Source: an uncultured delta proteobacterium (GTDB taxonomy: Bacteria; Desulfobacterota; Binatia; Binatales; Binataceae). From it: 64,000 nucleotides of DNA. Positions within the stretch are counted from its first letter, which is position 1, and every line of letters starts with the position of its first letter. Below the pieces are notes generated by a model that saw nothing but the letters and a program-made list of their open reading frames with translations, was not told the origin of the DNA and searched no databases. Of this stretch, positions 8,984-63,670 are shown piece by piece. Location of the stretch: NCBI GenBank assembly GCA_963808235.1, contig CAWEEQ010000004.1, positions 3,785,789 to 3,849,788 on the forward strand, given 5' to 3'. Made by a program: the position numbers and the translations under genes.

Positions 8984-8993
8984 GCCCCGTTGC

Positions 8994-9668: not shown

Positions 9669-9789
9669 GGCGCAACTCCTTTGGTTCGGGACTCATGGCG
9701 GCGAGTGTAACATCGGCTCGACCGCGCCGGTCAATCTATCGCATCTAATCGCGCGCGCGGGGAACCTGCCTCTGTTATCGTTTCAATAG

Positions 9790-34440: not shown

Positions 34441-36835
34441 GTAAATGCTCGCGAAGTTCGTTCATCATCTCCCGAACTTGTGGATTTCCCGGTTCGAGAT
34501 CGTCGAGACGCTTGGCGTAGGTCAGCGCCTTGGCGGGATCGCCTGAATGTTCCAGGAAGCTGACCAGCGCGGATAGCGAATCGCGGTCGTAGGGATGTAT
34601 TTTCAATGAGGTCTCCAGAGTCTCGATTGCATCTTTGGTCTGGCCGGCGTCGTGTAATGCGACCGCATACACATAAACATAACGGGCATTCGCCGGTTCG
34701 TTGCGCGCGGCGGCTGCCAGCAGATCGAGAGCTTGCGCGTTGCGCTTTTGACGGACCATCAGCAGACCGAGCGCGTGTTCGAGCGACGCGTCGTTTGGCG
34801 AACGGCTGATGGCGTCCTTGAGGACTCGTTCACCTTCTTCATCCCGGTGTTGCCCACGATAAAGGTCAGCCAGGTTGACAGCGGCAGGTGCAAAACTCGG
34901 ATCTAGCGATAAAGAAGTTTTGAGTTCCGCCTCGGCTTTGTCAAATTGATTCTTCCTCGCGTACAGCAGTCCCAGATTCATGTGCGCCTCTGGACGATCG
35001 GCATTCAATTGTTGCGCGCCGACGTACTCATCAGTCGCGCGGCCGAAAGCAGCGGTAACGTTTTGAGGAAGGTTGTCCGCAGGCAACCCGGAGAGCACTT
35101 CCGCCGTCTCGATTCGTACGGAGCGAATCGGATCGCTGAGAAGCGGCGCAAGTGCCGTGGCGCTAGCGGCTGGATCGGAGTTCGACAGGGCGCGGGCGGC
35201 GGCCCGTCTCACCAGCGCCGAATCATCAGCGACTGCAGCGCGAACGGTCGAGTCCGTCGGAGGCGGAGCAAACGCCGCGAGCATCGAAAGTGCGGCGGCG
35301 CGCGCGATAGCAGGCTGATCGCGATCCACGATCAATCGTTTAAGCGATTCCCCTGCGCCCGGTGCTCCCGTCGAGCCAGCCTGCAGGGTTTCAGCGAAAC
35401 GCTGAAAGCCCTGAGGTGCGCGCCCGTACCATTTGGTTACCGAATCCGATGCCCATTGAGCCGATTTGTCGGTATGGCAGTTGGTGCATGCGTTTGGAGT
35501 GCCCAGCTTCATCGAGAGGTCGGGGCGCGGAATTCGGATGCTGTGATCTCTGCGCGCATCGACAACCATGTACGTGCGCGTCGGCATATGACATTCAACG
35601 CATCGCGCCCCCGCCGATCCGACTTGGTGGAAATGATGTTTCGGCGAATCGTACTTTTGCGCCGAATGGCATTGCACACAAAGGTTGTTGCCGGTGGCGC
35701 GAAGCGCGGAACTGTGCGGCTCGTGACAATCGCTGCAGGTAACTCCGGCCTGGTACATCCGGCTCTGGATGAAGGAGCCGTATTCGTAGTCCTCCTCCTT
35801 TATCTGTCCATCCGGGAAATAGTGGTCTTCATCGAGCAGCGCAACGCGGTAGTCGTCGCCTACTTGCTGGCCATGAACGTAGTCTTCGTGAATCTGGCCG
35901 CGCCGCGCATGGCATCGCGCACACATCTGTATCTCCCGCTCTGAGCGACGCGGTGAGCTTCGATGCCCGTTGCCGGTTGCCGGATCGATCGACCATGCGA
36001 CGCCTGTACGTTCATCCAGCGCGATCGTCAAGCCGTCGTTTGCGATGCTCTTCCAATCGCCCTGCTTCCTCGCCCACGCTATGTGATTTGAACCCGGGCC
36101 GTGGCAAGCCTCGCACGCGACATCGATCTCGGAATAGGCGGTCGCGAAGGCGCGCGTCTGCGGATCGTAGTTCTTGCGCAAATTCGTCGAATGACAATCG
36201 GCACACATGTAGTTCCAGTTCTGATCGATGCCAGTCCAATGCTGCGAATCCCGATATGTGATCTTCTGACCGGGATACAACGAGAACCAACGATGACCAC
36301 CACGCTCCGTCGCGCGGCTGTCCCATGCGATTCCGAACGCCTGCAAGCGTCCGCCGGGCATCTCGATAAGATATTGCTGGAGCGGATATACGCCGAAGGT
36401 GTACTTGATCTCGTAATCGTGTAGCGCCCCATCGGGACCATCGGTGCGCACCATGAACTTCGAGCCAAGCCGAGAGAAAGTTGAAGTGATGCCATTGTTG
36501 ATGAAGCTCGCATGATTGAAATCGCCCAGGACCGCGGAATCTGAGGCCGGTTGCATCGCGAGTTGATGATGCGAGCCGCGCCAGCGAGCACTCTCGCGCT
36601 CGTGACAGCCGGCACATTCGACCGCGCCGACGAATTTCGCGCTGACTATTGTGGGCTGTTTCGACGAATCCGCGGGATATGCAGAGTGCCGCTTCCATCG
36701 CGCCAGGAGCGCGACCGCCGCGATAGCAATCGCTATCGGAACCAGCAGCCAGGCGAGGTTCCGTGGCGCAACCGGTTCGGTCCGAACTGGTGCCGTCCGC
36801 TTGTTACGGGGTTTTTTCTTCCTACTCACGGTCAA
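34433..36835 (-). CDS. Octaheme c-type cytochrome with HEAT and TPR repeats
   Basis: 8 CxxCH motifs (CAGCH, CADCH, CEACH, CARCH, CSDCH, CVQCH, CVECH, CTNCH), N-terminal TM, C-terminal TPRs. Confidence 0.9.
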   Translation of the reverse strand: MTVSRKKKPRNKRTAPVRTEPVAPRNLAWLLVPIAIAIAAVALLARWKRHSAYPADSSKQPTIVSAKFVGAVECAGCHERESARWRGSHHQLAMQPASDSAVLGDFNHASFINNGITSTFSRLGSKFMVRTDGPDGALHDYEIKYTFGVYPLQQYLIEMPGGRLQAFGIAWDSRATERGGHRWFSLYPGQKITYRDSQHWTGIDQNWNYMCADCHSTNLRKNYDPQTRAFATAYSEIDVACEACHGPGSNHIAWARKQGDWKSIANDGLTIALDERTGVAWSIDPATGNGHRSSPRRSEREIQMCARCHARRGQIHEDYVHGQQVGDDYRVALLDEDHYFPDGQIKEEDYEYGSFIQSRMYQAGVTCSDCHEPHSSALRATGNNLCVQCHSAQKYDSPKHHFHQVGSAGARCVECHMPTRTYMVVDARRDHSIRIPRPDLSMKLGTPNACTNCHTDKSAQWASDSVTKWYGRAPQGFQRFAETLQAGSTGAPGAGESLKRLIVDRDQPAIARAAALSMLAAFAPPPTDSTVRAAVADDSALVRRAAARALSNSDPAASATALAPLLSDPIRSVRIETAEVLSGLPADNLPQNVTAAFGRATDEYVGAQQLNADRPEAHMNLGLLYARKNQFDKAEAELKTSLSLDPSFAPAAVNLADLYRGQHRDEEGERVLKDAISRSPNDASLEHALGLLMVRQKRNAQALDLLAAAARNEPANARYVYVYAVALHDAGQTKDAIETLETSLKIHPYDRDSLSALVSFLEHSGDPAKALTYAKRLDDLEPGNPQVREMMNELREHLHG

Positions 36836-36937
36836 CTCTCGGCGCCCACGTCGCGCGAATCATCCGCCGGTCAGGTTAAACTGCGATGCCTCCATATGCG
36901 CGAGGCCAATCGTTACCTAAGGAACCAAGTCGCGCCG

Positions 36938-36957
36938 TATGAGACCAAAGTACAATT
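36938..36957. promoter_or_regulatory. Degenerate copy of the same operator
   Basis: TATGAGACCAAAGTACAATT between the divergent cytochrome and response regulator genes. Confidence 0.5.
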
Positions 36958-37026
36958 GCTCGATTCCATAAACGGATTGTAATATTTCGCAACGTCTTGC
37001 AGCGAAACGGCTTGGGAGGAAGGACG

Positions 37027-37728
37027 ATGCGAAGCGCAGAGACAGCTGTCCGACCCCAAAGTGTCAGGAGCGACCGCCACTCTAAAAGCGCAGTTCCTAG
37101 CGGACGCATCAGGGTCGCGATAATCGAAGACGAGGAGCGGGTGCGCAAAGCCCTTGTCTTCCAGCTCAGCACCGCCGGTTTCGAAGTCGCCGCTCATTCC
37201 AGCGCGGAGGAACTTCTCGAGGCCGCCGGTGCTAAGGACTTCGATTGTGTAGTGGCGGACATTTACCTGCCGAAAATGAACGGGCTCCAGCTTCAGGAAG
37301 AGCTGGGCCGCACGGTTCCCTACGCATCAATCGTTTTCATCACCGGGCATGGCGATCTTTCACTCGGGATGCACGCAATGAGGAAAGGCGCCGTGGATTT
37401 CCTCGAAAAGCCGATCGACGATCAGGCCTTGCTGAGCGCGATAACTCGCGGCGCTCAGCTCTCGCGCGAACGGCGCGCTGAACAATTCCGAAGGATCGGA
37501 CTTCAGGAGCGCGAGCACTCTCTAACTGCCCGCGAGCGCGAAGTCTTCGCCCTGATAACCACCGGCTTGCTGAACAAGCAAGTCGCCTCCGAGTTGGGAA
37601 CAACCGAAAGGACCATAAAGGCGCATCGCGCAAGTGTGATGACCAAAATGGGCGCAGGCTCACTCGCCGACCTGGTCCGGATCGCTGGAATCCTCCAGAC
37701 CCACGCTCCTTTGAAAACTCTCGAATGA
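37027..37728 (+). CDS. FixJ/NodW-type response regulator (REC + LuxR HTH)
   Basis: FITGHGD, GAVDFLEKP, LTAREREV, GLLNKQVA, IKAHR. Confidence 0.93.
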   Translation: MRSAETAVRPQSVRSDRHSKSAVPSGRIRVAIIEDEERVRKALVFQLSTAGFEVAAHSSAEELLEAAGAKDFDCVVADIYLPKMNGLQLQEELGRTVPYASIVFITGHGDLSLGMHAMRKGAVDFLEKPIDDQALLSAITRGAQLSRERRAEQFRRIGLQEREHSLTAREREVFALITTGLLNKQVASELGTTERTIKAHRASVMTKMGAGSLADLVRIAGILQTHAPLKTLE

Positions 37729-37773
37729 AGTGAGGTCTGCGGCGCACTGCCAGCACGCCATGGACAATGACCA

Positions 37774-39114
37774 TCAGGAATGCCCCCCTTTTGTTGCGCT
37801 GGCGCGTTTCCTTTCAGCGACCGGAAGGGTGAAGGTGAAAGTGGCGCCGCCAGCGGAATTCGGCGACGCCCAGATTCTGCCGCCGTGACCCTCTACAATT
37901 GTTCGGGTGACGAGCAGACCTAGTCCCATTCCTTCGCTCTTGGTCGTGAAAAACGGCTCGAACAACCGATTGGCGACGGCCGGATCTATACCTGCGCCGC
38001 TGTCAGAGACGCTTATCTCGACCCATCCGGTCTTCTCCGGCGCCACCTTGATAGTTATGCCGCGTTGTTCAGCCTTGGCCTCGGCGATCGAATCGAAAGC
38101 GTTCATAAGCAGATTCAGTACGCACTGCTGCAACTGGACCCTGTCGCCAATGACTCGTTGCGCGGAGGGCGACACCTGAGTCTGCACAGAGATCTGTCGA
38201 ACCGTGGCCTCGCCGGCGGTCAGCCTCGTCACTTCCTCGATCAAGGCGCCGATGCCGATCGCAGCCTTGTGCTCGACGTGTCTCTTGAACATGAACCGGA
38301 TACGGCGAACGATTTCGGCCGTCCGCTTGGTGTCTTCGATCGCATTGCTGACCGCCTCCAGAGCCATAGCGGGGTCTGGATTTCCTTCCGTCAGCAAGCG
38401 CGCAAGACCGCCGAGGTTGCTCAAAATTGCGCCTAGAGGCTGGTTGATTTCGTGCGAAAGTGACGCGACGAGTTCGCTCATCGAGTTGCGGCGCGAAGCG
38501 ATCCTGAGTTCGGTGCGAGCTTCCCGTATCGCCGCCTCCAATTGCTTGCGCTCGATCGCGCTGCCGAAGAGCCGCACTGACAGGGCCAGGTGATCGAGCA
38601 GTACAGGCGGCCATTGCCGACCAGACCGGAACTTGCCGAAACTCGCCGCACCGATGACCCGGGAACCGCCCCACATCGGGATCGTCGCAGAAGCTTTTGG
38701 TCCGTATCGCTCTATATAAGGTCTCAGATCTGCGACTTCACTTGGAATTTCATCTGGATTCGACCAGAAATACGGATTGCCTTCCATGACCCACTTTGTG
38801 CTTTTCGGGAAGAGCTTCTCCGCATCATAGTTCCGCGGAAAGGGCGGGAAGCCGGCTCGAAGCCAGGTGTGAGTCGTGCGTACCGGCTGGCCCGGCGCAT
38901 CGCGCTCGTATATGGCGCTCCGGTCGAGGTTCAAAGCCTGGCAGATTTTTCCCAACCACGCTTCGATTTCGCGGTCAACCTCCTCAGCGGGCACGAGTGC
39001 CATCGCCGCTGATAGTTCCCCGACGAGCGATTCGAATCGCTCGACTTCGCGCCGTTCGCGGCCGACGCCCGCAGGCCTACGACGCTTTGGCTCGATAATC
39101 GGTCGTCGTTGCAT
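37774..39114 (-). CDS. GAF-domain FixL/NodV-type histidine kinase
   Basis: SHEINQPL, NLLMNA, FFTTKSEGMGLGL; no TM. Confidence 0.92.
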   Translation of the reverse strand: MQRRPIIEPKRRRPAGVGRERREVERFESLVGELSAAMALVPAEEVDREIEAWLGKICQALNLDRSAIYERDAPGQPVRTTHTWLRAGFPPFPRNYDAEKLFPKSTKWVMEGNPYFWSNPDEIPSEVADLRPYIERYGPKASATIPMWGGSRVIGAASFGKFRSGRQWPPVLLDHLALSVRLFGSAIERKQLEAAIREARTELRIASRRNSMSELVASLSHEINQPLGAILSNLGGLARLLTEGNPDPAMALEAVSNAIEDTKRTAEIVRRIRFMFKRHVEHKAAIGIGALIEEVTRLTAGEATVRQISVQTQVSPSAQRVIGDRVQLQQCVLNLLMNAFDSIAEAKAEQRGITIKVAPEKTGWVEISVSDSGAGIDPAVANRLFEPFFTTKSEGMGLGLLVTRTIVEGHGGRIWASPNSAGGATFTFTLPVAERKRASATKGGHS

Positions 39115-39326
39115 CGGTCAGAACTCAGGTTTGGGGTTGGAGGTCGACGAGGAGACAGCGGATATGTCGAATCCGGTCCCTGAGAAGGTACGATCCTCCA
39201 AACGGTCGAAATATATTACCTGGGCCGGTTAGATGCCAATGTCGCGCGCAGATACCCGCGAGTCACGGAGATCTCATAATGAAACGTTCACACTGGCGCG
39301 GTCTGTAGTCGCTCCGTATGAAGAAT

Positions 39327-39707
39327 TCAAATCGCCCGTGGCAACGCCTTTCGTATCGCCCGGAGCAGATCTTTTTCGTCGAAAGGCTTGAACAAGCTGG
39401 CGGCCGGAGTGGCTCGACGGATCATTTCCCTGGTCTGCGGATCGTCGCGGCCGCTTATCAGGATCGTCGGCAAGTGCCGTCCTGACGCAGCCATCGTCCG
39501 GCATAGTTCTATCCCGGTCATTCCCGGCATGTAGACGTCGAGCATCAGGCACGCGTCGCCGTTCGGAAACTCGCCGGCCAGGAAATCCTCCGCACTCTGA
39601 AAGTCCAAAACGCTGAATCCGAGAATCTGCAATTGCCGTCGCAGGGCGCGGCGGATAGACGCGTCGTCATCTACCACAATCACTGTGGCCGTCGATTTAT
39701 TCCACAA
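39327..39707 (-). CDS. Single-domain response regulator
   Basis: VVDDD, LDVYMPGMTG, KPF. Confidence 0.9.
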   Translation of the reverse strand: MWNKSTATVIVVDDDASIRRALRRQLQILGFSVLDFQSAEDFLAGEFPNGDACLMLDVYMPGMTGIELCRTMAASGRHLPTILISGRDDPQTREMIRRATPAASLFKPFDEKDLLRAIRKALPRAI

Positions 39708-45014: not shown

Positions 45015-45101
45015 ACTGAAATAAAATTGCGGCGACCGCGTCTGCCCGGTCCGATATCGATTCCCGCACTTCTGGTCGAATAGGTAGCTAGCACGATTGC
45101 G

Positions 45102-48100
45102 TCATAGTAGTGCGACGTGTCGCCCGGCAGCTGTATTGGACTCGCGATCGCAAGCGGCGTGAATCGCATCGATCAGAGTCACGCGTTTGATAGGTTTGCT
45201 CACATGGGCGTCGCAGCCGGCGTCCAGGCACTCGCGCACAGCGTCGGGCAGTGCCGACGCGGTCAGCGCAATGATTGGTGTGCGCGGGCCGCCGTTCCCG
45301 TTTTCCCATCGCCTGATCGCGCGGGTCGCCTCGAGCCCGTCCATCACCGGCATCCTGATGTCCATAAGCACCAGGTCATATTCTTCGGTCGTGAACCGCG
45401 CCAACGCTTCGCGGCCGTCCCCGGCCTCATTCAGTTCGCACCCCGTCTCCGAGAGGAACGCGCGCACCAGCATACGGTTGTCAGGAGAATCGTCGGCCAG
45501 CAGGATCCGCAATCCGTTAAGCGCACCAGTTACTTCGGCGACAAGCGGTCCGACCGCGGGCTCTGCGATCCCATCGGTGTCGCACATTACTCTGCTGATC
45601 GCTTCGAGCAGTTCGGCTCGCCGTATCGGCTTGACCAGATAGGCGTGAAGTCCGAGTTCACACAGCTCCGCAAGCCGGACCCTCATGTCGTCAGAGGTGA
45701 GCATCATCACGACTGGTAGCGGCGCGCCGCTCTTCGTATAGAACGCGCGGATGCGTGCGGCCAGTTCGATCCCATCCATCCCCGGCATTCTGCAATCCAG
45801 CAGGATTAGCTCGAATGGACGTCCAGTGGCGCTTGCTTTCTCGAGTTCTTTCAGCGCGTCCGCGCCGCTTGGCGCGCCGGTGATTCGCGCACCCTCGGAT
45901 TCGAGGATCTCACGCAGAATCAGGCGATTAACCTCGGTATCGTCGACGATCAAGGTCTCAACGTCGCGGAGATTGAGCTGCGCGGCCCCAGCGCGCTTGT
46001 CCATTGCCCGTCCGGCGCCGAACATCGCGACGAAACTGAAACAGCTTCCCATCCCAGGCTCGCTCTCGACCGTGATCTCACCGCCGGCAAGCTCGACCAG
46101 CCGGCGCGCGATCGCGAGTCCGAGCCCGCTCCCACCGTAACGGCGTGTGGTCGATGAGTCGGCCTGGCCGAAGGTGGAAAATATTATCGATAGCTTGTCC
46201 TTGGGAATGCCGATGCCGGTGTCACGAATCGCGAAGCGCAGTCCGATCTGATCGGAGTTCGGCCGGCCCGCGGCGGCGAAGTCCGCGCGTTCGACAGTCA
46301 GAACGATCTCGCCGCGCTCGGTGAATTTGATCGCGTTGCCGAGCAGATTGACCAGAATCTGGCGCAGACGCAAAGGGTCGCCGAGCAAGTTGCGCGGCAC
46401 GTCGGGCGCGATTCGCATCGCGAGCTCGAGTCCTTTTTCGTGCGCCCGCCCACCCATCATGTCGCCCAGCTTGTCGATCAGTTCTTCGAGATCCAGTTCG
46501 ATGCGCTCGATCGTGAGGCGGCCGCTCTCGATCTTGGCAAGGTCGAGGATGTCGTTGATCAGATCGAGCAGCGCGTCGCCATTGGAGCGCATCACGTTGA
46601 CCCACCGGCGCTGCTCGTCGGTGAGAGTACTGTTGGTCAGCAGCTCCGCCATCCCGAGCACCGCGTTCATGGGGGTGCGAATTTCGTGCGACATGTTGGA
46701 GAGGAAATCCGACTTGGCTCGCGAGCCCGCGAGTGCAGCTTCGCGGGCAGCGATTAGTTGATCCTGAGTTTCCTTTAGTGCGGTGATATCGCGAGTGAAG
46801 GTGACGCAGCTTAGATGTCCGCGCAGCTTGAGATTGAGCGCGGAGATCAGGCCGGAGTAGGTGCTGCCATCTTTGCGGATGAAGGTCGCTTCCATGTTCC
46901 TGACCAGTCCGACTCGTTTGAGCTCTGCGACCAGGCGCGCGGTATCTTCGGGGTTCATGAATGACGGGAAATCGCGTGAGCGTTTTCCGATCACATCTTC
47001 GCGGCGGTAGCCGCTATGTCGTGTGTATTCATCGTTGACATCGATGTACCTGCCGGTTTCGAGATCGAGAATCATCATGGAGTCCAGGTTCTGATCGAAT
47101 ACCTGGCGCAGCGCCATCTCGCTCTCACGCAGTTGGGCCGCGGTAAGCTCGCGCTCGGCGATCATCTGCTCGCGTTGGACAGCCTCCGCGCGGAGCCGCT
47201 CCTCGCTCGCTCGCAACGCCTCGACTTGACGCGACAGTTGCTCGCGCGCGGCGCGCAGCTCAAGCTCGGTCTCCCTGATCGAATGAATGTCGCGACCGAT
47301 CGAGACCAGACACTGCTCCCCGCCGATCTCGGTGACCACAGCCGAGAGCAGGTATGGGATGATGCGCCCGTCTTTGTGGCGGACGTCCACCTCCATGTTG
47401 CGCACGATCGATTCCGAGGTCACGCGCTCGACGAAGGTGCGCGTTTGCCCCGGATCGGACCAGATGCCCAGGGCCGCGGGCGTTTTCCCGAGCACTTCGC
47501 CGGAAGTGAAGCCGGTGGTCTGCGTGAAGCCACTGTTGACGGTTACATACGTGCGGTCAGAGACGCGGTTGATTGTGATTGCGTCGGGGCTCGATTCAAT
47601 GATCTTACGGAGCATCTCTTCGCTTTCTTGCAGCTTGCGCTCAGTCTCCTTGAGGCTGCTGACGTCGCGAGTGAAGGACACGATACACGGCTCGCCGTCG
47701 AGTTCGATGATCACGCCGGAGATGAGGCAGGGAACGATCACGCCGTCGAAGCGGCGGAAATTCGCCGCGAAATTGCGCACCCGCTTGCGCTCCTTCATCT
47801 TCGCCAGAAATTCCCTCAGCTGCGCGTCGTCGGCCCAGATCGAAATCTGCCGGGGTGAACGGCCGACCGACTGGATGACCTCGAAGCCGGTGGTCTCGAA
47901 TTCGCGATTGAGCAGGACGTAGGCACCGTCGGACAGGCGGTTGATCGTGATCACTTCGGGGCTGGCAGCGATGATTCGGCGGGCCATGTCCTCGCTAACG
48001 TGGGCGTGGCGCTCGGCGCGTTCGAGTTCGGCAATCTTGTTGCGCAAAGCGGCCTGGATGCTGGCGTGGCTCTGAATGGCCTGCCTAATCCGCCAGCGGT

Positions 48101-48644
48101 TGCGGCGGTTGATTTCATGAGTGAGGTGCGCGAGCGTGACCGCGACCGCGAGCGTTATCCAGTAGTAGACGCTGAGATGGATCGCCAATGATGCGACGAT
48201 CAGGCATGCGATGCCCACCAGCTCCAGCGACGCCTGCCACCGCCATCCCCACGGCACCAGCACGCCGGTCCCAATCAGAAAGAGCAGCACCGACCCGAAC
48301 AGCAGGGCAGGCCGGTTGTCCGCGAAGCCAATCAAGGTGCTGCTCACCATCAACGCGGAGCAGCTCCACCACCCCCAACTCCGCCAGTGAGTGCTGAAGA
48401 CCTCGATATAGGTCGCGCACAGGATCGCCACGCCGATCATCAGGTTCAGCACGTGGAGAGGACCGGTTCCGGGGGCGGCGGGTCGAGTCTGGTGGGGACC
48501 GGCGAACAGGCAGGCGAGCTGAAATGCGATGACAAGTGTCGCGCCAATTCGCATCGGCGCCACAAGGTAGCCGGGATTCAAGTCGAGGAGCAGGAGTTCC
48601 GTCGGGTCGCCGGCATCGGGCCCATTCTGAGCTTCCGGCGGCAT
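45102..48644 (-). CDS. Membrane-bound hybrid histidine kinase (TM, 3 PAS, HisKA, HATPase, 2 REC)
   Basis: MSHEIRTPMN, GNAIKFT, GGSGLGL, two receiver domains; TGATG coupling with upstream gene. Confidence 0.93.
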   Translation of the reverse strand: MPPEAQNGPDAGDPTELLLLDLNPGYLVAPMRIGATLVIAFQLACLFAGPHQTRPAAPGTGPLHVLNLMIGVAILCATYIEVFSTHWRSWGWWSCSALMVSSTLIGFADNRPALLFGSVLLFLIGTGVLVPWGWRWQASLELVGIACLIVASLAIHLSVYYWITLAVAVTLAHLTHEINRRNRWRIRQAIQSHASIQAALRNKIAELERAERHAHVSEDMARRIIAASPEVITINRLSDGAYVLLNREFETTGFEVIQSVGRSPRQISIWADDAQLREFLAKMKERKRVRNFAANFRRFDGVIVPCLISGVIIELDGEPCIVSFTRDVSSLKETERKLQESEEMLRKIIESSPDAITINRVSDRTYVTVNSGFTQTTGFTSGEVLGKTPAALGIWSDPGQTRTFVERVTSESIVRNMEVDVRHKDGRIIPYLLSAVVTEIGGEQCLVSIGRDIHSIRETELELRAAREQLSRQVEALRASEERLRAEAVQREQMIAERELTAAQLRESEMALRQVFDQNLDSMMILDLETGRYIDVNDEYTRHSGYRREDVIGKRSRDFPSFMNPEDTARLVAELKRVGLVRNMEATFIRKDGSTYSGLISALNLKLRGHLSCVTFTRDITALKETQDQLIAAREAALAGSRAKSDFLSNMSHEIRTPMNAVLGMAELLTNSTLTDEQRRWVNVMRSNGDALLDLINDILDLAKIESGRLTIERIELDLEELIDKLGDMMGGRAHEKGLELAMRIAPDVPRNLLGDPLRLRQILVNLLGNAIKFTERGEIVLTVERADFAAAGRPNSDQIGLRFAIRDTGIGIPKDKLSIIFSTFGQADSSTTRRYGGSGLGLAIARRLVELAGGEITVESEPGMGSCFSFVAMFGAGRAMDKRAGAAQLNLRDVETLIVDDTEVNRLILREILESEGARITGAPSGADALKELEKASATGRPFELILLDCRMPGMDGIELAARIRAFYTKSGAPLPVVMMLTSDDMRVRLAELCELGLHAYLVKPIRRAELLEAISRVMCDTDGIAEPAVGPLVAEVTGALNGLRILLADDSPDNRMLVRAFLSETGCELNEAGDGREALARFTTEEYDLVLMDIRMPVMDGLEATRAIRRWENGNGGPRTPIIALTASALPDAVRECLDAGCDAHVSKPIKRVTLIDAIHAACDRESNTAAGRHVALL

Positions 48645-50296
48645 CAGCTGTCTCCCGCAAAAGCAGGGATGATGCTCGGGTGTCCGCCGGTCTGCGTGAC
48701 GGTTCGGATCGCGGCGATGACGGTGGACTTCTTGACTGGTTTGGAGACGTGCAAATCGCATCCGCTGTCAATCGCCTTGCGGACTTCCTCCGGGAACGCG
48801 GAGGCGCTCAGCGCGATAATCGGCGTCCGGGGCAGCCCGTGCTCGCGCTCGCGCTTGCGAATCGCGCGGGTCGCAGCGTAACCGTCCATCACCGGCATCT
48901 GGATGTCCATCAGGATAAGATCGTACTGAGCCGAGGTGAATTTCCGCACGGCTATTTCGCCATTCTCAGCAGTATCGAGATGGTAGTGGGTGCTCTTCAG
49001 GTATGCGTCCACCAGAAGGCGGCTCTCGAAAGTGTCTTCAGCCAGCAGGATCCTGAGTGGCGGCTCCGATGCTGACTGTTGGTCAGAGCCAGGAGCGATG
49101 GCCCTTGCGTGTGCCATCGCAGTCGCGATTGCTGCGTATAGTTCGGCGCGGCGGATTGGCTTGACCAGACAAGCCTCAACTCCAAGCTCGCGCATGCGCG
49201 CCGTCGTGACACTGAGGTCATCCGAGGTCAGCATCAGCGCCAGCATCGGGCGCCCGGAAATGCCGCTACCGACCCGCCTCGCCATCTCGAGTCCATCCAT
49301 ACCGGGCATCCGGTAATCAATTACCAGCAGCTCGAATGGTTCTTCAGTCTGAAGCGCCCGGCCAAACTTGGAAAGGGCATCCTCTCCGCTCGCGGCTTCC
49401 GTCACAAGAGCGCCTTTGGCCTGAAGCATCTCGCGCACGATCGTTCGGTTCACAGGCGTGTCGTCTACGACAAGCGTTCGGACGCCCATAAGATTGAGCT
49501 GAGTAGCGGTCGCTCTGGCCTGGATCGAAGCGGGCCGAAATTCGAATCGGGCGGTGAAATGAACCACGCTTCCTTTTCCGATTTCGCTTACCGCCCAAAT
49601 CCTGCCACCCATCAGCTCGACCAACCGTTTCACGATCGCCATTCCGAAACCGCTGCCAAAATGCCCCCGTGCGATCGAGGTGTCCGCCGGTGGGAGGCTA
49701 TCGAAGATTCTGGCGATTTTGTCCTGAGCAATGCCGATACCCGAATCATCGACTGAGAAGTGGAGTAGAGCCGATTGACCGGTCTCGTCTTCCTTCTCGA
49801 CGGTCAAGACAATCGAACCGACTTCTGTAAACTTGATCGCGTTGCCGACCAGGTTAAGCAGAATCTGACGGAGCCTGGACGCGTCTCCGATCACATGGGT
49901 CGGAATGCCCCGGGTTACATCGCATGCCAGCTCCAGGTGCTTGCTGTGAGCGCGGATCGCAAGAGTCGCGCAGACGCGCTCCACGAGGTCGATCAGATCG
50001 AACTCAGTCTGCTCCAGTGCGAACGGTTCCGCCCGGACTTTGCCGAGGTCGAGGATGTCATCGATAAGATCGAGCAGCACATTGCCGTTGCTGACCAGTA
50101 TGTCCACATACTTGCGTTGCTCCACATTGAGCCTGGTGTCAGCAAGCAGCTCCGCCATCCCTAGCACCGCGTTCATCGGCGTGCGAATCTCGTGAGATAT
50201 GCGGGCTAGGGACTCATACTCGGCTCGCGGCGCGGAAAGCGAACCTTCCTGCTCCTCCTCGACTTGGTACTGATCTGACTTGGGCACCGACCTCAT
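48644..50296 (-). CDS. Sensor-less hybrid histidine kinase (HisKA, HATPase, 2 REC)
   Basis: ISHEIRTPMN about 33 residues from the start; diverged G2 box (GSGFGM). Confidence 0.88.
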   Translation of the reverse strand: MRSVPKSDQYQVEEEQEGSLSAPRAEYESLARISHEIRTPMNAVLGMAELLADTRLNVEQRKYVDILVSNGNVLLDLIDDILDLGKVRAEPFALEQTEFDLIDLVERVCATLAIRAHSKHLELACDVTRGIPTHVIGDASRLRQILLNLVGNAIKFTEVGSIVLTVEKEDETGQSALLHFSVDDSGIGIAQDKIARIFDSLPPADTSIARGHFGSGFGMAIVKRLVELMGGRIWAVSEIGKGSVVHFTARFEFRPASIQARATATQLNLMGVRTLVVDDTPVNRTIVREMLQAKGALVTEAASGEDALSKFGRALQTEEPFELLVIDYRMPGMDGLEMARRVGSGISGRPMLALMLTSDDLSVTTARMRELGVEACLVKPIRRAELYAAIATAMAHARAIAPGSDQQSASEPPLRILLAEDTFESRLLVDAYLKSTHYHLDTAENGEIAVRKFTSAQYDLILMDIQMPVMDGYAATRAIRKREREHGLPRTPIIALSASAFPEEVRKAIDSGCDLHVSKPVKKSTVIAAIRTVTQTGGHPSIIPAFAGDS

Positions 50297-51387
50297 ATTC
50301 CCGCCTCCTCAAGCAGAGCGCAGCGCAGTTTGAACAAATGGACCGTCAGTGTCAGGTAACGCAGCCGCCAGAGGGCAGAGAGGTTGTCGCTGTCAAGATC
50401 GATTCGGTAGTGTGAATCGATCGTCGCAATTGCCTTCCGGAATCGCTCGCTGAAATTTGCGGCCGGGCTCTCGCGCCAGGTGAGTCCGCCTCTGCCGAGG
50501 ATCGCACGGGTCGCGGACTGACTGTACGCGGACATGGCTACCACGGCGTCAGAGAAAAGCTCATGCTCATCGCTCAGATGTTGGGGGAACGTTTTGCCGA
50601 TCGCTACGTGGTCTCCGCGCTTGCCAAGAATTGCCTGGTAGACGTGGTGCCCGAGTTCGTGTCCGATCGTTGTGGCTACTGCGCCCGGCTCGTGGGCCGT
50701 GTTCAGGAAGATCACGGTTGTGCTCCGCCCTTGCACCTTTTTCTCTGCCGAGAATCCCCATAGTGAGCGTCCGCCGCCTTGCAGATAAGGCTCGGCGCTG
50801 ACGACTACATCTCCCCAGTGGAACATTCTTCGCAGTTGCTCGGACCCATGCCGATCCTGCCAACAACTCCATATCTGGGTGTATGGCTTGATGAACCGGT
50901 CGACGATCCTGCCTAGTTCCTGAGCCATTTCGACGGCAGGGAAACCGCGCCCCTCGCGATAGTCCGCTGCGAGCACAGTATTAAGATCCGCCAGCGCAAG
51001 GTGAGCTCCGTCTCCAAGCAGCTCGGATGAAAATTCGAGCTCGTCCAACAACTGCACCGCAAGCTCGTGATGGCCTTCAGGAGCGACTGGAGGCGTCAAG
51101 TTGTGAACGCAAGACTGCCCCAGGTCAGTCGAGATCGTTGACCCGGGGCGGACCGTACCAACGCGATCGCGCAGCTGGCCATTCGCGAAGAGAGAAAAAG
51201 CAGTGCGCGGAGCAATCGTTGGGTCGCCGAGAACTTTCGGATCGCAGGTGTCCGGTACCGAGCCCCGGTCATCTATAGATTTTATCACCGGGTTGGCATG
51301 CCCATCCGAGGGATCTTGTCTGCAGCCAATTCTCCGGTCCCGATACTGGGACAATAGAGCCCTGGCCCAAATTCGACGAGTAGCCAC
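50293..51387 (-). CDS. ImmA/IrrE-like Zn metallopeptidase-domain protein
   Basis: IFLN...TIGHELGHH...EHELFSD; start codon uncertain. Confidence 0.65.
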   Translation of the reverse strand: MATRRIWARALLSQYRDRRIGCRQDPSDGHANPVIKSIDDRGSVPDTCDPKVLGDPTIAPRTAFSLFANGQLRDRVGTVRPGSTISTDLGQSCVHNLTPPVAPEGHHELAVQLLDELEFSSELLGDGAHLALADLNTVLAADYREGRGFPAVEMAQELGRIVDRFIKPYTQIWSCWQDRHGSEQLRRMFHWGDVVVSAEPYLQGGGRSLWGFSAEKKVQGRSTTVIFLNTAHEPGAVATTIGHELGHHVYQAILGKRGDHVAIGKTFPQHLSDEHELFSDAVVAMSAYSQSATRAILGRGGLTWRESPAANFSERFRKAIATIDSHYRIDLDSDNLSALWRLRYLTLTVHLFKLRCALLEEAGI

Positions 51388-51395
51388 GAATGCAC

Positions 51396-51821
51396 CTAAC
51401 GACCGACCGCGTGGCGCACGATGTTGAGGATATAGATGAAGTCGCGAGGAGACCGGACTTCGCCGAGCAGCGCCATCCGCGACACCATCTCCATTTCCGT
51501 ATCGCTAATGTTGTGGATGCTCCGCAGTTGCCTGTTGTGCCGGAAGTTCTCCCACGCCGCCGACGCGCGAGCCGGCTCCGAACCGAGCAGTTTCCGCGTG
51601 CACGGATGGGCCAGCAAGAACAGCTCGCGGCCGTCTAGCCCGAGCACCTTAGCTAGCCGGGCGACGATTCTGTCCGAAGGACGACGCTTGCCAGATTCGA
51701 GATGACCGACATAGGGGATGGAAGTCTTGATGCGGCGCGCAACCTCCGCTTGAGTGAGGGAGCGCAGGCGGCGGCGATCGCGAATCACCTGACCAAAGCT
51801 TCGCTGCTCGGACCCGATCAT
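51396..51821 (-). CDS. XRE-family HTH regulator with extra C-terminal domain
   Basis: FGQVIRDRR..LTQAEVA..YVGHLESGKRRPS. Confidence 0.9.
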   Translation of the reverse strand: MIGSEQRSFGQVIRDRRRLRSLTQAEVARRIKTSIPYVGHLESGKRRPSDRIVARLAKVLGLDGRELFLLAHPCTRKLLGSEPARASAAWENFRHNRQLRSIHNISDTEMEMVSRMALLGEVRSPRDFIYILNIVRHAVGR

Positions 51822-51886
51822 GAAAAGTCTTACCTCCCCCGGCCGGCGCATAACCGCCCAAGCAGGTATGCAACCGTTGCGGACAG

Positions 51887-51903
51887 AGCAAGCCAGATGC
51901 CAA
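51887..51903 (-). promoter_or_regulatory. sigma54 (-24/-12) promoter
   Basis: Minus strand TTGGCATCTGGCTTGCT (GG-N10-GC), about 66 nt upstream of the XRE gene. Confidence 0.7.
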
Positions 51904-52189
51904 TGGTGAATTTCAACAGCGAATCAGGCGCTTTTGCGGGAAGAACAGAAACCAGGGACTTTTAGTCGTGTCAACTGCTCAAAATCGGTTCGCTATTGGT
52001 GCGATCTTCAGCCGTCTCCGCTGGCGATAAAAAAATACCTCATCCTGACTGCCAGCGTCTTTAAGTAGCAGAAATACTACATAGAGTAGCGCATCTGCTA
52101 CTTTTTGAACGGCGATTCCGTCAGATTTAGACTCTTGGACTAATCGAAAAACGCCAGCGGAAATGGGCCTCGGCAATCTCCGGGACCGC

Positions 52190-52507
52190 TCAATCGCTGA
52201 ATCTGACTTCGACGTGGTCGAGAAACTCGGCAAGAGCTCTTGCCCACTTCAGTGCTGCACACTGATCGGCACTGATCGCCGCAATCTCCAACTTGGCACC
52301 CATCGAGGTTACTTCGTCGAAGCCGAACGCGGAGCCCTCGCCCTTGAGCTGGTGGCCAACGCGCGCTGCGGTATTGTAGTCGTTCCGCTCCAGTGCACCG
52401 ATGGTGTCTGCGATATCGGCGCGTTTGTTTCTGAGAAATTGAGGGACCAACACTCGTAGATCGCTATCCACGACTATGACCAGGTCTCGGTCTTCGTTCA
52501 TGGCCAT
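52190..52507 (-). CDS. Stand-alone Hpt phosphotransfer protein
   Basis: GHQLKGEGSAFGF. Confidence 0.88.
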   Translation of the reverse strand: MAMNEDRDLVIVVDSDLRVLVPQFLRNKRADIADTIGALERNDYNTAARVGHQLKGEGSAFGFDEVTSMGAKLEIAAISADQCAALKWARALAEFLDHVEVRFSD

Positions 52508-52610
52508 GATTTGGTTCCTCTGTCCGCGTTCCCGCTCCTTTAACGCAACGTGTAGCGTCTCCTATGAGTCGTGAGTAGCACCGGCCTCGCCCGGCCAAAA
52601 TCAATGCTCG

Positions 52611-52626
52611 TGCAATAAGGATGCCT
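52611..52626 (-). promoter_or_regulatory. Putative sigma54 promoter
   Basis: Minus strand AGGCATCCTTATTGCA (GG-N10-GC), about 100 nt upstream of hpt. Confidence 0.5.
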
Positions 52627-52718
52627 GCAACAGATTGGTCGCGCTTTTCGACCTGATTTGGTGGAGTCGCCGATCGAACGCAATATTGCTAGGCTGCGGG
52701 CAAGTGGGGTAGCCACCC

Positions 52719-53108
52719 GTGCCCGTAAGAACTCTGCTGGTCGAGGATTCAGTCTCCGCGCGAGAGATGCTCAAGCAAAAGCTTGAGGCGATCGGCTGTG
52801 AGATTGTCGCGATGGCGGCTGACTCCGCGACGGCGCTCGAGTTGATCCGAAAGCTGCAGCCTCAACTCATGACCTTGGATCTCATTATGCCGGAGACGGG
52901 GAGCCTGCACGCCAAAGAACTGTTCCGCATAGTCCGCAAGGAAATGCCCGAAGTTGCAGTCATAATTATCAGCGCTCAATCAAACGCTACGCAACGCGGG
53001 GACTTCATTCGAGAGGGCGCGATCGAATTCGTTCAGAAGCCTTTCTTCAAGTTTGACAAGCTGGCCGCAAAACTGTCGCAGATTTTCCCTGACATCAAGT
53101 CTCGCTAG
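52719..53108 (+). CDS. Single-domain CheY-like response regulator
   Basis: LLVED, LDLIMP, ISA, KPF. Confidence 0.88.
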   Translation: MPVRTLLVEDSVSAREMLKQKLEAIGCEIVAMAADSATALELIRKLQPQLMTLDLIMPETGSLHAKELFRIVRKEMPEVAVIIISAQSNATQRGDFIREGAIEFVQKPFFKFDKLAAKLSQIFPDIKSR

Positions 53109-53199
53109 CGAACTCTACATCTCCGCGTGGCGGATACCACGCCCGGCGGGGTTGATGCGCTTCCCTCCTGGGTTGCTGCTTTGCCTTTGGCTTTTTCTA

Positions 53200-53420
53200 A
53201 TCGTGGATGACCCGAAGAGAGCGAAGTTAAGGCGCGTCACCTTTCATACTCTGCGCCATAGCTGCGCTTCGGCGATGATCGCGAGCGGCGCACCAATCAC
53301 GGAAGTCCAGCATCGGCTCGGCCACGCCAATCCCGCCATCACCCCTTCTCGTGTACTCGCATTTCCTGAAGCATGCCGAGAGCGACGTCGCCGATCGGCT
53401 CGCCGACGCCTTGTTGAACT
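53200..53420 (+). pseudogene. Tyrosine integrase C-terminal remnant
   Basis: FHTLRHSCAS...VQHRLGHANPAIT, then a frameshift to VYSHFL; no N-terminal part. Confidence 0.85.
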
Positions 53421-53672
53421 TCCCGTCAGCGTCGAGAACTCAGAAAGAGATCGAATCCGCAGCCTAAGTGAGGCCGCCACGGTGAGGCGGTTCCGCGGCT
53501 GCAGCGGGTTCGTTCTGACCGGGACAATGCCCAGCGTGCACAGCATCGACGTGCGGGTATCCGGAGGGTCTCGCATTCCTCGACGGGAGAAAAGCAAATG
53601 AACACTTCGCCTTTTTCTTACGCCTCATAGGCGAGAATTACGACGCTGACCAACGCTGAAGCTAGGCCGATA

Positions 53673-53875
53673 TTATGGCCCTGTAGCTGCAATTTGGTGG
53701 GATACAATGGGTGGGCCGGGACGAATATGGAATCCGCGAGCGCGCTCAAGTGCCGGCGTGTCCTCGTCTGTGGCGCGGCTATGCTGTCGCACGTGCTCCG
53801 CCCACGATTCAACCATAAAATACTCGATGTACCGGTCGGGCTTGGCGACATCGGAGAACAAGCCCTAGAATCCCG
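53673..53875 (-). pseudogene. Orphan fragment of an MFS C-terminal domain
   Basis: YIEYFMVESWAEHVRQHSR parallels FVETFLVDSWLEHLRQHER of the adjacent MFS. Confidence 0.6.
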
Positions 53876-53880
53876 CTCCG

Positions 53881-55533
53881 TCACGATACCTGGTCGTTCG
53901 AGGTGCCGGGAACAAGATCGGCGGCGATCAGATGGGTGACTTTCGGCGTGCCTTTCCTCTGAAAGCGATCGACTGCTATCTGCAGCGCAGAATCGGCTTT
54001 GGTCACACGCTCATGCTGCCGCAGATGCTCCAACCAGGAATCGACGAGAAAGGTCTCAACAAATCGACCGTCGTTCGCCGGATCCTCGAATATTCCCCAG
54101 TCGTACGCGCCGTCGCGGCGGCGCTCGCGTGCCAATTCGGCGATCGCCTTCAGGAACGCTTCGCGCTGCGCCGGATCGATGTCGTACTCCGTCGTTACAA
54201 GTACCGGTCCGCGATCGCGTTCGATTTCATGAGTGGTGATCGGTGCCGGCCACTTCATCGAGGGCGTCAGGTCGAGGTCAGCGCCGGTCTGCAGCTTCCA
54301 TCTCCACGTCAGCGGTATCGCTATCAACGCGCCGCCGGCGGCGATGAAGTGGGCGAGTGGAAGGCCAGCAATCGTCGCAACCTGTCCCCATATCGCGCTG
54401 CCAATCGTCAAACCGGCGGAAAGGACTGTTACGAACATCGAAAGTCCCCGCCCGCGCACCCATTCCGGCAACGCGACCTGCGCTGAAATATTGAGACTGG
54501 ACAGCACCGTGATCCACGAAACGCCAGCGATCAGACTTGCAGCCAAACCCAAGAAGACCTCGTGAGCCAGCCCGAATAGCGCTATGGCACCCGCGGTGCC
54601 AAACGTCCCTACAGCTACGAGCCAGTCGGGATTGAGCGCCGCTTTTAGTCGAGGCAAAGCGAATGCACCGCCTACCGCTCCGGCACCAATCGCACCGAGC
54701 AGGACGCCGTAAATTTCCGGTCCCCCGGCGATTTGTCTGCGCGCAACAAGTGGCAATAAGGCCCAGTAAGCGCTGGCGAACACGAAGAAGGCTGTTGCGC
54801 GGATCAGGGTTGCACTAAGAGGTCCGTTATATCGCGCATATCGCAAACCCGTGCGAATGGCATTGAGGAAGCGCTCTGGAGGCAGACGTCGGTCGCCGCT
54901 ACTCGATTGGCGCCACCATACGAGCGCGCCAACAACCGCCAGGGTGCTAACGGCGTTGATCCAAAAGGGAGCCGCAATTCCATATGCGCCAATTACTGCA
55001 CCACTGAGCGCGGGACCGACGGCCCGGCTGACGTTGATGCCGGCGCTGTTGGCGGACACCGCTGCAGCCAAATCCGATTTCGGAACGAGCTCTGGAACGA
55101 CTGCTTGCCAGGCGGGCGCGATGACAGCAGAGCCCGCCTCTATTAGGAATGTAAAAAGCAGCAAGTTCAGCGGAGTTACCCGATGAAGCAGTACGAGCGC
55201 GGCAAGCGCTGACGAGAAAACGATCGTGACGACTTCGCCGAAGATGAGAATTTTGCGCCGGTCCACGATATCGGCAAGTGCGCCGGCAGGTAGGGCAAAG
55301 AGGCAGTATGGCAAACTCGTTGCAACCTGGACCATCGAAACGATAAGCGGCGAAGGGTTGAGGCTGGTCATCAGCCAGCCCGACGCTGCGCTGTACATCC
55401 AGCCGCCGACATTTGAGATAACGGTCGCGGTCCAAATAACGGCGAACGTCTTATGCCGAAACGGGCTCCAGGCAGAGTTCGGCCGTTGGGTCGAAGGCGT
55501 CGCTGGATCGGCAATTTCTTCGCAAGGCGCCAA
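53881..55533 (-). CDS. MFS transporter with soluble C-terminal domain
   Basis: GALADIVDRR, PAWQA, RAVGPA, WVRGR. Confidence 0.9.
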   Translation of the reverse strand: MAPCEEIADPATPSTQRPNSAWSPFRHKTFAVIWTATVISNVGGWMYSAASGWLMTSLNPSPLIVSMVQVATSLPYCLFALPAGALADIVDRRKILIFGEVVTIVFSSALAALVLLHRVTPLNLLLFTFLIEAGSAVIAPAWQAVVPELVPKSDLAAAVSANSAGINVSRAVGPALSGAVIGAYGIAAPFWINAVSTLAVVGALVWWRQSSSGDRRLPPERFLNAIRTGLRYARYNGPLSATLIRATAFFVFASAYWALLPLVARRQIAGGPEIYGVLLGAIGAGAVGGAFALPRLKAALNPDWLVAVGTFGTAGAIALFGLAHEVFLGLAASLIAGVSWITVLSSLNISAQVALPEWVRGRGLSMFVTVLSAGLTIGSAIWGQVATIAGLPLAHFIAAGGALIAIPLTWRWKLQTGADLDLTPSMKWPAPITTHEIERDRGPVLVTTEYDIDPAQREAFLKAIAELARERRRDGAYDWGIFEDPANDGRFVETFLVDSWLEHLRQHERVTKADSALQIAVDRFQRKGTPKVTHLIAADLVPGTSNDQVS

Positions 55534-61373: not shown

Positions 61374-61637
61374 ATGCTGAAGATCGTAAGGTCTGAGAAT
61401 CCCGACTTCGTCCTCTTCACGCTCAGCGGTCATATAGACGCCGAGCATGCCGCAGAATTGCAACTGGCCTTCGATGGAGAGGCTCTTCGAATCGTTTTGG
61501 ATCTCCGAGAGGTGAAGCGTGTCGATCGGGAAGTGGTGGTGGATCTCGCGCGCTGGAATGCAGATAGTATCAAATTCGAAAATTGCCCGGCCTACCTCCG
61601 CGAGTGGATTGCGAGGACTCAGATGGATCCTCGTTAG
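61374..61637 (+). CDS. Small STAS-like protein
   Basis: FTLSGHID...VLDLREVKRVDRE...CPAYLREWI. Confidence 0.7.
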   Translation: MLKIVRSENPDFVLFTLSGHIDAEHAAELQLAFDGEALRIVLDLREVKRVDREVVVDLARWNADSIKFENCPAYLREWIARTQMDPR

Positions 61638-63375: not shown

Positions 63376-63670
63376 CTCGCTGAAACCTGCTCGATGATAT
63401 AGCGCTCTTGAGGTGGAGGCGCGAGCGTTCCGACACCGCCAGGTGCTGCGACCTCGAAGGCGCAATTCGAGCTCGTTTGCGCATAGATCACGAAACATCG
63501 TTACTGCGCCCTACCCGCGAGGAACGACCAAATTCGGCGGAGGTTATGCCAGCCTCCGGGAGAGTTGGATATGCACCCACCACACCCTTCGCAAGAGTCT
63601 CAAAAGGTTCCGGCGGATTAGCCAAGCTCGCCATGCTCTGACCTTCGCGGAAAACCGAAATCAAAAATTG

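Follow-up and report, generated by a model that had tools for sequence, protein, structure and literature searches.

A candidate repressor and peptidase pair of the DdrO/IrrE type within a sigma-54-type phosphorelay operon of an uncultured Binataceae bacterium

DNA repair, mobile elements and phage defence are known to be controlled by proteolytic stress switches in which a COG2856 peptidase is paired with an XRE repressor, and multistep phosphorelays that join hybrid kinases to a separate Hpt protein are represented by the LuxQ-LuxU-LuxO, ShkA-ShpA-TacA and GacS/RetS types. The subject of this work is a locus in which parts of both kinds lie together, at positions 45102-53108 of a stretch of 64,000 nucleotides (the window, positions 3,785,789 to 3,849,788 of contig CAWEEQ010000004.1, assembly GCA_963808235.1) from an uncultured member of the Binataceae, whose genome measures 4.59 Mb in 4 contigs and where the window reaches the contig end. 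To our knowledge, almost nothing is known of regulation in the Binatia, a widespread uncultured soil group.

Among the closest described pairs, that of DdrO and IrrE serves the radiation and desiccation response of Deinococcus, and there IrrE cleaves DdrO in its C-terminal domain, at Leu106-Arg107 (PMC12828697). ImmA of ICEBs1 is a short peptidase of the M78 family that has no GAF domain and cleaves the XRE repressor ImmR (PMC12828697), and the repressor and peptidase pair CapH/CapP controls the neighbouring cargo genes (10.1101/2022.04.27.489752). The Binataceae locus could be read as a proteolytic switch of the DdrO/IrrE type added onto a sigma-54-dependent phosphorelay operon, a reading towards which we lean tentatively and with somewhat less than even confidence. 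A first-pass annotation of the window had seen in it a candidate for a novel system, which is too strong a term, as COG2856/XRE pairs with varied cargo were already known; the combination extends a type of stress switch that was known before and is not a wholly new system.

The list of open reading frames (ORFs) and Pfam give, on the minus strand, the gene order Hpt, XRE, PEP (the protein that carries the HELGH motif), HK1 and HK2, with a CheY-like gene divergent from them. The features of the locus are the following.

45102-48644, minus strand: HK2, a membrane hybrid histidine kinase of 1180 amino acids counted from Met40 (ORF and Pfam; the longest ORF extends to 48761).
48644-50296, minus strand: HK1, a cytoplasmic, sensor-less hybrid kinase of 550 amino acids (ORF and Pfam).
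50293-51288, minus strand: PEP, a predicted divergent M78 (ImmA/IrrE)-like metallopeptidase, with its start placed by homologues (the longest ORF, of 364 amino acids, extends to 51387).
51396-51821, minus strand: XRE, a DdrO/CapH-like repressor candidate, of 141 amino acids if the ATG at 51821 is its start (51851 is reached by the longest ORF).
51850-51880, minus strand: candidate operator region, placed by inference between the -12 element and the ribosome-binding site of XRE.
51888-51902, minus strand: sigma-54-type -24/-12 element TGGCATCTGGCTTGC, upstream of XRE-PEP-HK1-HK2 and conserved.
52065-52101, no strand assigned: two tandem dyads, GTAGCAGAAATACTAC and GTAGCGCATCTGCTAC, a candidate activator site conserved in related loci.
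52190-52507, minus strand: stand-alone Hpt of 105 amino acids with the motif GHQLKG (Pfam Hpt, 6.8e-08).
52612-52626, minus strand: second sigma-54-type element AGGCATCCTTATTGC, upstream of Hpt and conserved in the aligned loci.
52719-53108, plus strand: single-domain CheY-like receiver of 129 amino acids (Response_reg, 4.6e-18).

The minus-strand run, the Hpt, the divergent CheY-like gene, the ATGA shared by the stop of PEP and the start of HK1, and the TGATG shared by the stop of HK1 and the Met40 start of HK2 are all present where the first-pass annotation had placed them. The gap of 8 nucleotides that it reported between XRE and PEP holds for the longest ORF, in which PEP would start at the GTG at 51387, and does not hold with the likelier start: because the close homologues of PEP begin at the residue aligned with V34, that is, the GTG at 51288 (residues of PEP are numbered here on the longest ORF of 364 amino acids), and because in the related metagenome locus L089 the gap is 54 nucleotides, the true gap is probably about 107 nucleotides. 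A GGAGG precedes the ATG of XRE at 51821, and this start is more likely than that of the longest ORF.

The repressor candidate, XRE, carries a helix-turn-helix (HTH) recognised by the Pfam families HTH_31 (6.3e-14) and HTH_3 (1e-12), and in its model, with a predicted local distance difference test score (pLDDT) of 83, the HTH (residues 9-79) is followed by a low-confidence linker (80-87) and by four helices (88-140), there being no hydrophobic segment in the protein. When this model is compared with known structures by Foldseek, full-length DdrO (6jq1 and 6rnx) leads, with E-values from 4e-4 to 1.1e-3 over 140-142 columns, and DdrO chains occupy four of the top five ranks, rank 2 being 9a7f_A; the capH profile of PADLOC matches residues 6-116 (7.2e-9). 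By sequence, the PDB matches are confined to the HTH (CapH 1.5e-6, DdrO 7.9e-6, ImmR 7t8i 0.0083, and many generic XREs), and no PDB chain was matched by the sequence of the C-terminal domain. Within the XRE family that stands beside PEP paralogues (21 sequences, with a mean identity of 57%), the invariant residues of this domain are W90, F93, E109, G120, V122, R123, D127 and F128. The likeness to DdrO and CapH over both domains upholds the type of repressor partner that the first-pass annotation had named, and it fits a candidate for a cleavable repressor of the DdrO/CapH type, composed of an HTH and a helical C-terminal domain.

PEP, for its part, is read from sequence and model as a divergent zincin of the M78-like kind whose zinc site is intact, belonging to a family restricted to the Binatia. 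The sequence libraries are each weak and all point in the same direction: the only Pfam match is PF06114 (Peptidase_M78; E 0.0028, 17.9 bits, under the cut-off of 22), the only PADLOC match is capP (E 0.011), the only PHROG match is a metallo-protease (E 0.036), and the best PDB profile match is CapP 7t5t (E 0.15), with 0 families matched in NCBIfam; across the family, PF06114 matches 30 of 30 members at E <= 0.1, the best at 8.7e-05. Being under the curated sequence threshold, PEP is therefore not filed as a plain member of the M78 family. Its AlphaFold model has a mean pLDDT of 65.5, with residues 1-102 disordered and a better core, in which the HExxH motif falls inside a predicted helix (234-254), and hydrophobic segments number 0. 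Compared with 48,161 chains by VIA-align, the model finds its top fold match in CapP 7t5t (Z 6.0, root-mean-square deviation 4.0, 144 residues aligned) and its second in PprI/IrrE 8sln (Z 5.5, deviation 4.5, 136 aligned). The ImmA/IrrE likeness proposed in the first-pass annotation for the product of 50293-51387 is supported in the sense of a divergent M78-like protein, with PF06114 below its cut-off and NCBIfam silent.

The residues of the putative zinc site are those that the family has kept. In 30 aligned members H243, E244, G246, H247, H270, E276, D280 and Y288 are invariant, and the spacing of the HExxH (H243-E244-L-G-H247) and of the downstream E276 resembles that of H82/E83/H86/E113, the zinc-site residues of IrrE, where the Glu that acts as third ligand lies about 27 residues downstream of the HExxH (PMC12828697). 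A word-indexed search returned 60 relatives at E <= 0.001, one of them named an ImmA/IrrE family metallo-endopeptidase by NCBI, and HMMER, run in full over 1.84 billion representatives, returned 176; a search of the ESM Atlas gave generic zincin clusters, all with scores < 0.9, which serve as leads only. The disordered N-terminal extension (50980-51288, residues ~34-107) bears a conserved motif, VRPGSxIS-DLGQxC, common to the kinase-linked clade described below and to P0018, P0020 and P0022, and absent from most other members of the family.

The locus can be set beside the described pairs. With DdrO/IrrE it has in common an XRE made of an HTH and a helical C-terminal domain, for which DdrO is the best fold match, and a peptidase-like protein with an HExxH and a downstream Glu, for which PprI is the second-best; it is unlike it in that the PEP model has no GAF-like C-terminal domain and shows instead an additional helical region besides the disordered N-terminal extension, in that a sigma-54-type promoter would drive the genes together with two hybrid kinases, and in that the locus holds no DNA-repair genes and the sequence similarity of PEP remains under the family thresholds. 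CapP 7t5t is the best PDB match of PEP by both sequence and fold, and capH matches XRE; however, the cargo here is a phosphorelay and no defence system, PADLOC giving for the kinase only generic receiver and ATPase matches, and the PEP family is specific to the Binatia and mostly without XRE. ImmR 7t8i matches the HTH of XRE, whereas conjugation and integration genes are absent, one integrase fragment excepted, and the PEP family is found in core-chromosome contexts. From what sequence and models indicate, the locus thus differs from the three pairs by the lack of a GAF-like domain, by a clade-specific N-terminal extension, by sigma-54 control and by the phosphorelay cargo.

In this cargo, HK2 contains HisKA, HATPase_c, two Response_reg domains and three PAS stretches, with hydrophobic segments within residues 27-172, and HK1 has the order HisKA-HATPase_c-2xResponse_reg without any hydrophobic segment; as HK1 starts ~25 residues ahead of its H-box and has nothing N-terminal of it, it has no sensor domain. 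Both the sensor-less state of HK1 and the hydrophobic N-terminus with three PAS stretches of HK2 agree with the first-pass annotation, and so do the phospho-sites of its His-Asp-His-Asp relay: SHEIRTP is present in both kinases (H35 being nearly invariant in the alignment of HK1 homologues), the acceptor Asp and the Lys are kept in all five receivers, four of the kinases and that of CheY, and the phosphotransfer motif GHQLKG is present in Hpt. HK1 shares 50% identity over 539 amino acids with the core of HK2. Sensor-less orthologues of HK1, of ~550 amino acids, are P0062-P0065, the next relatives having 843-900 amino acids and PAS domains. In NCBIfam the best matches of the kinases, all sub-threshold, are TorS, BarA, ArcB and LuxQ, and no equivalog threshold was reached. 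Like the known multistep phosphorelays, the locus combines hybrid kinases with an Hpt that stands alone and a separate receiver, two paralogous kinases being encoded in one operon, and its sigma-54 promoters would fit a terminal regulator of the activator type; unlike them, apart from CheY no terminal regulator is encoded locally, and a repressor and peptidase pair is embedded in the operon.

As regards the promoters, the pattern TGGCAY-N5-TTGC is matched exactly by the element at 51888-51902 and with one mismatch by that at 52612-52626. By number alone such elements say little, given that the window contains 11 against 7.35 expected and that 14 of 100 shuffles reach 11, which is not above chance; but GG and TTGC are invariant in 6/6 aligned related loci for the first element and in 5/5 for the second (where GGCA-N6-TTGC is kept), whereas the spacers and flanks vary, and both GG-N10-GC promoters of the first-pass annotation are sustained by this conservation. 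The promoter ahead of XRE is not, for all that, a feature of an XRE-PEP cassette, being part of the relay locus and common in the PEP family as a whole. A scan of the PEP loci that required at least 9 of 11 specified positions on the coding strand, with the opposite strand as control, found a sigma-54-type element upstream of PEP in 62 of 87 loci, against 8 of 87 in the control, almost always 170-220 nucleotides before the conserved core, and three further loci have score-8 sites at the same place. The pattern spans several clades of the tree, although the figure of 62/87 overstates independence because many of these loci are orthologous; the Binatia PEP family appears from its sequences to be largely sigma-54-dependent. 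The sister clade L002-L006, introduced below, showed no strong sigma-54 element upstream of PEP.

The genome encodes one rpoN (Sigma54_DBD match) and 19 activator genes (Sigma54_activat), 10 of which have a receiver match by phmmer, two of these weak or partial. The activator gene nearest to the locus, at 61570-63498, is a PAS-PAS sigma-54 activator without a receiver. The tandem dyads lie ~165-210 bp upstream of the first promoter element and are the sole tandem GTAG-N8-CTAC pair in 4.59 Mb of genome, where single sites number 10. The operator candidate at 51850-51880 consists of GCAACGGTTGC and an inverted repeat that is perfect in L089. All the sequencing runs listed for the DNA of the locus gave soil-metagenome DNA contigs, no RNA sequencing run being among them.

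If we accept the reading preferred here, the base would have been a sigma-54-dependent relay composed of the membrane PAS hybrid kinase HK2, the stand-alone Hpt and the divergent CheY-like receiver, and the XRE repressor, the M78-like zinc peptidase and the sensor-less paralogous HK1 would be extras that in this lineage separate HK2 from the promoter. The tandem GTAGC-N6-GCTAC dyads would be occupied by an enhancer-binding activator, perhaps the terminal response regulator of the relay itself, which would cause both sigma-54 promoters to fire, while XRE dimers near the transcription start would hold down the operon or other targets. On a stress cue, PEP would cleave XRE within its C-terminal domain, in the way that IrrE cleaves DdrO, and the expression of PEP and of both kinases would be released; the phosphate of HK1 and HK2 would then pass to their own receivers, from these to Hpt, and from Hpt to CheY and/or to the receiver-bearing activator, which may in this way close a feedback loop.

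The distribution was counted over 87 PEP loci, namely 79 of 80 genome loci (L077 having no PEP ORF), 5 from the own genome and 3 from metagenomes. For 76 of the 80 genome loci the record bears the name Binataceae, Binatus or Binatia or the label deltaproteobacterium, and the titles of the remaining four are Dehalococcoidia (1), Acidiferrales (1) and Proteobacteria (2); two or three copies of PEP occur in several genomes, and that of the window has five. A member of the XRE family lies directly upstream and on the same strand in 26 of the 87. Apart from the window itself, coupling of PEP to a kinase is seen in three contigs from metagenomes and in a single further genome:

L089 (metagenome contig, PEP 81% identical): CheY divergent from Hpt-XRE-PEP-HK1-HK2, with the module inverted relative to the FadL flank.
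L091 (metagenome contig): Hpt-PEP-HK1-HK2, with 65 bp in place of the XRE stretch.
L090 (metagenome contig): PEP-HK1.
L001 (other genome, 56% identity): a PAS-kinase-Hpt fusion divergent from CheY-PEP-PAS hybrid kinase, without XRE.

In a tree made by a quick method, the window groups with L089, then with L090 and L091, and then with L001 (Shimodaira-Hasegawa-like approximate likelihood ratio test, SH-aLRT, 96), and this kinase-linked clade is sister to L002-L006. Hpt is present in L086-L089, and CheY stands beside Hpt in L086-L089 and in L001; kinase-like matches in L009, L027, L064 and L071 lie 1.5-6 kb from PEP. A survey for the synteny of XRE, peptidase, kinase and Hpt, which the first-pass annotation had proposed, thus yields the full architecture once more, in L089, and fails to find it as a general feature; the combination is rare and narrowly distributed, and the PEP-kinase linkage within it is narrow and repeated.

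Other neighbours of PEP recur. A convergent gene of the beta-lactamase family is common, and genes for DsbA-like proteins or GlgX are found upstream; in L044, L068, L076 and L079 (about 8800-11650), which form one clade, a full-length MutS lies directly downstream of PEP on the same strand, which suggests a paralogue tied to DNA repair. A divergent sigma-54 activator without a receiver stands beside PEP, with no XRE, in L003 (6028-7740), L005 (5668-6846) and L006 (6181-7938). In the own genome, the distant paralogue L084 (G000:C4:214273-214749) has PEP (1498-2304) followed by an XRE-like ORF (1067-1501), with an overlap of 4 nucleotides.

Several observations weigh against a DdrO/IrrE-type switch built onto the relay. 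At the level of the protein, the Z of 5.5-6.0 obtained with PEP is middling by the own note of the tool, the Foldseek comparison of its model with the PDB gave no match at E <= 0.001 (the best, at E 0.083, being tyrosine phosphatases and meaningless), and all of its sequence matches to M78 fall under curated or usual thresholds. At the level of the DNA, the repeat of the candidate operator is imperfect in the window, the upstream regions of the 26 XRE genes share no motif common to all (one subgroup shares CCGCTG-N4-CAGCGG), and the majority of XRE-linked loci have the sigma-54 element after XRE and ahead of PEP, unlike the window and L089, where it lies upstream of XRE. At the level of distribution, XRE is absent upstream of PEP in 61 of the 87 loci, L091, L001 and L002-L006 among them, so that PEP need not act on an adjacent XRE; an adjacent kinase is found in only 1 of the 80 other PEP genome loci, L001; and XRE-PEP-HK1 is absent from all three same-genus loci that carry CheY divergent from Hpt-HK2. 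In these three genomes, whose HK2 orthologues have 82-86% nucleotide identity, the kinase directly follows Hpt. In the first-pass annotation such a switch appeared to gate the relay; that it is an integral gate is contradicted by these loci, where the relay with its promoter exists without XRE, PEP and HK1, as well as by L091 and L001, which keep PEP and the kinase without XRE.

Part of this evidence would favour an explanation, rather unlikely in our judgement, according to which PEP works with HK1 and not on XRE, either as a modulator that binds the cue or as a cutter of a kinase or receiver domain that re-routes the phosphate, XRE being a dispensable accessory. A hybrid kinase overlaps PEP or follows it within 14 nucleotides in all five members of the clade (the window, L089, L090, L091 and L001), two of these five loci have no XRE, and HK1 has no sensor domain; between the window and L001, where the same parts occur in another order, PEP and the kinase have diverged in parallel, with 56% identity for the former and, in a six-frame match, 60% for the latter (59% to the 843-residue cluster P0069). 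Such a partnership is nevertheless hard to find elsewhere: besides the single adjacent kinase among the other 80 loci, when 165 genomes of the family are compared, of the five nearest homologues of HK1 (56-60% identity) only that of the L001 genome has PEP upstream, and no PEP-kinase fusion was seen among the best 150 of the 176 relatives, because none of these exceeds 399 amino acids. We know of no M78 member that acts on a kinase, which also counts against it. A complex prediction for HK1 with PEP residues 34-364, made without controls, scored 0.00 against a mark of 0.32 and speaks neither for nor against binding.

The alternative that the co-location is incidental seems to us improbable rather than negligible. 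It would suppose that local rearrangement brought a chromosomal XRE-PEP unit, with a duplicated kinase, under a sigma-54 promoter that was already there, and that the unit is only co-transcribed with the relay and has its targets elsewhere. Homology with the same-genus loci runs from Hpt down to ~51887 and resumes at ~47180, the HK2 orthologues matching only 45154-47180, and therefore XRE, PEP, HK1 and the sensor region of HK2 have no counterpart in any of the three; in 36 same-genus genomes no PEP orthologue was found, the best match having 43% identity. The flanks are not syntenic in relatives, and in G006, a relative whose genome is a single contig, ~112 kb separate the left flank of the window from the right one; the 8-kb module (45100-53115) is inverted with respect to the FadL flank in L089 (6066-11680), an integrase fragment adjoins CheY, and PEP paralogues occur in many unrelated contexts. 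However, stop and start codons still overlap in several relatives that have diverged, L001 repeats the PEP-kinase pair together with relay parts at 56% identity, and no convincing inverted or terminal repeats were found around the module, nor any tRNA in the window, that would mark a mobile element. The contigs of four soil-metagenome runs are short pieces, some of which cross the XRE/PEP, FadL/HK2 and CheY/integrase-fragment junctions with 0-1 differences, the best run being perhaps the source sample.

On the right side of the module, the ORF at 53053-53601 (plus strand), of which residues 55-97 match positions 119-162 of the 172 of Phage_integrase (E 9.3e-11), appears to be the remnant of a truncated recombinase and adjoins the CheY gene, and same-genus homology of this flank resumes only at about 53633-53900. 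Elsewhere in the window, the region 34433-39707 holds a multihaem cytochrome/TPR protein of 800 amino acids and a second two-component set, with a LuxR-type regulator (36997-37728), a GAF kinase (37774-39114) and a CheY-like receiver (39327-39707).

A bolder supposition, which we regard as quite improbable, is that the M78-like proteins of the Binatia are sigma-54-induced regulatory peptidases of which one, in this clade, would now be the dedicated partner of a sensor-less hybrid kinase, so that proteolysis, or a sensor borne by the peptidase, would feed the phosphorelay. Were it true, it would amount to a protease-gated two-component input, not described in the literature covered; in the open-access text searched, no report was found that links COG2856/M78 proteins to histidine kinases.

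That PEP is not an active peptidase at all, being a zincin-derived protein for ligand binding or scaffolding, is very unlikely, for in spite of its weak similarity to M78, of the many family members without any repressor, and of the presence among the fold matches of chains titled 'Mycobacterium tuberculosis transcriptional regulator' (6d2s and 6cyj, Z 4.1), which we take to be PrpR, where a related domain has a regulatory role, the H, E and H of the motif and the downstream E are invariant in 30 diverse members, as expected of a working zinc site. A defence system was likewise considered and rejected, as PADLOC matched no system beyond capH and capP themselves.

In the preferred reading, that of a DdrO/IrrE-type switch added onto the relay, the presence of such a switch inside a two-component operon would extend the COG2856/XRE logic to the hardware of signal transduction, and the locus would open an approach to the control of a hybrid kinase that has no sensor. 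How general this can be is limited, as the coupling to a kinase is narrowly distributed. As regards the family as a whole, the sigma-54-type promoters that precede 62 of the 87 PEP genes point to a regulatory module extended throughout the lineage of the Binatia.

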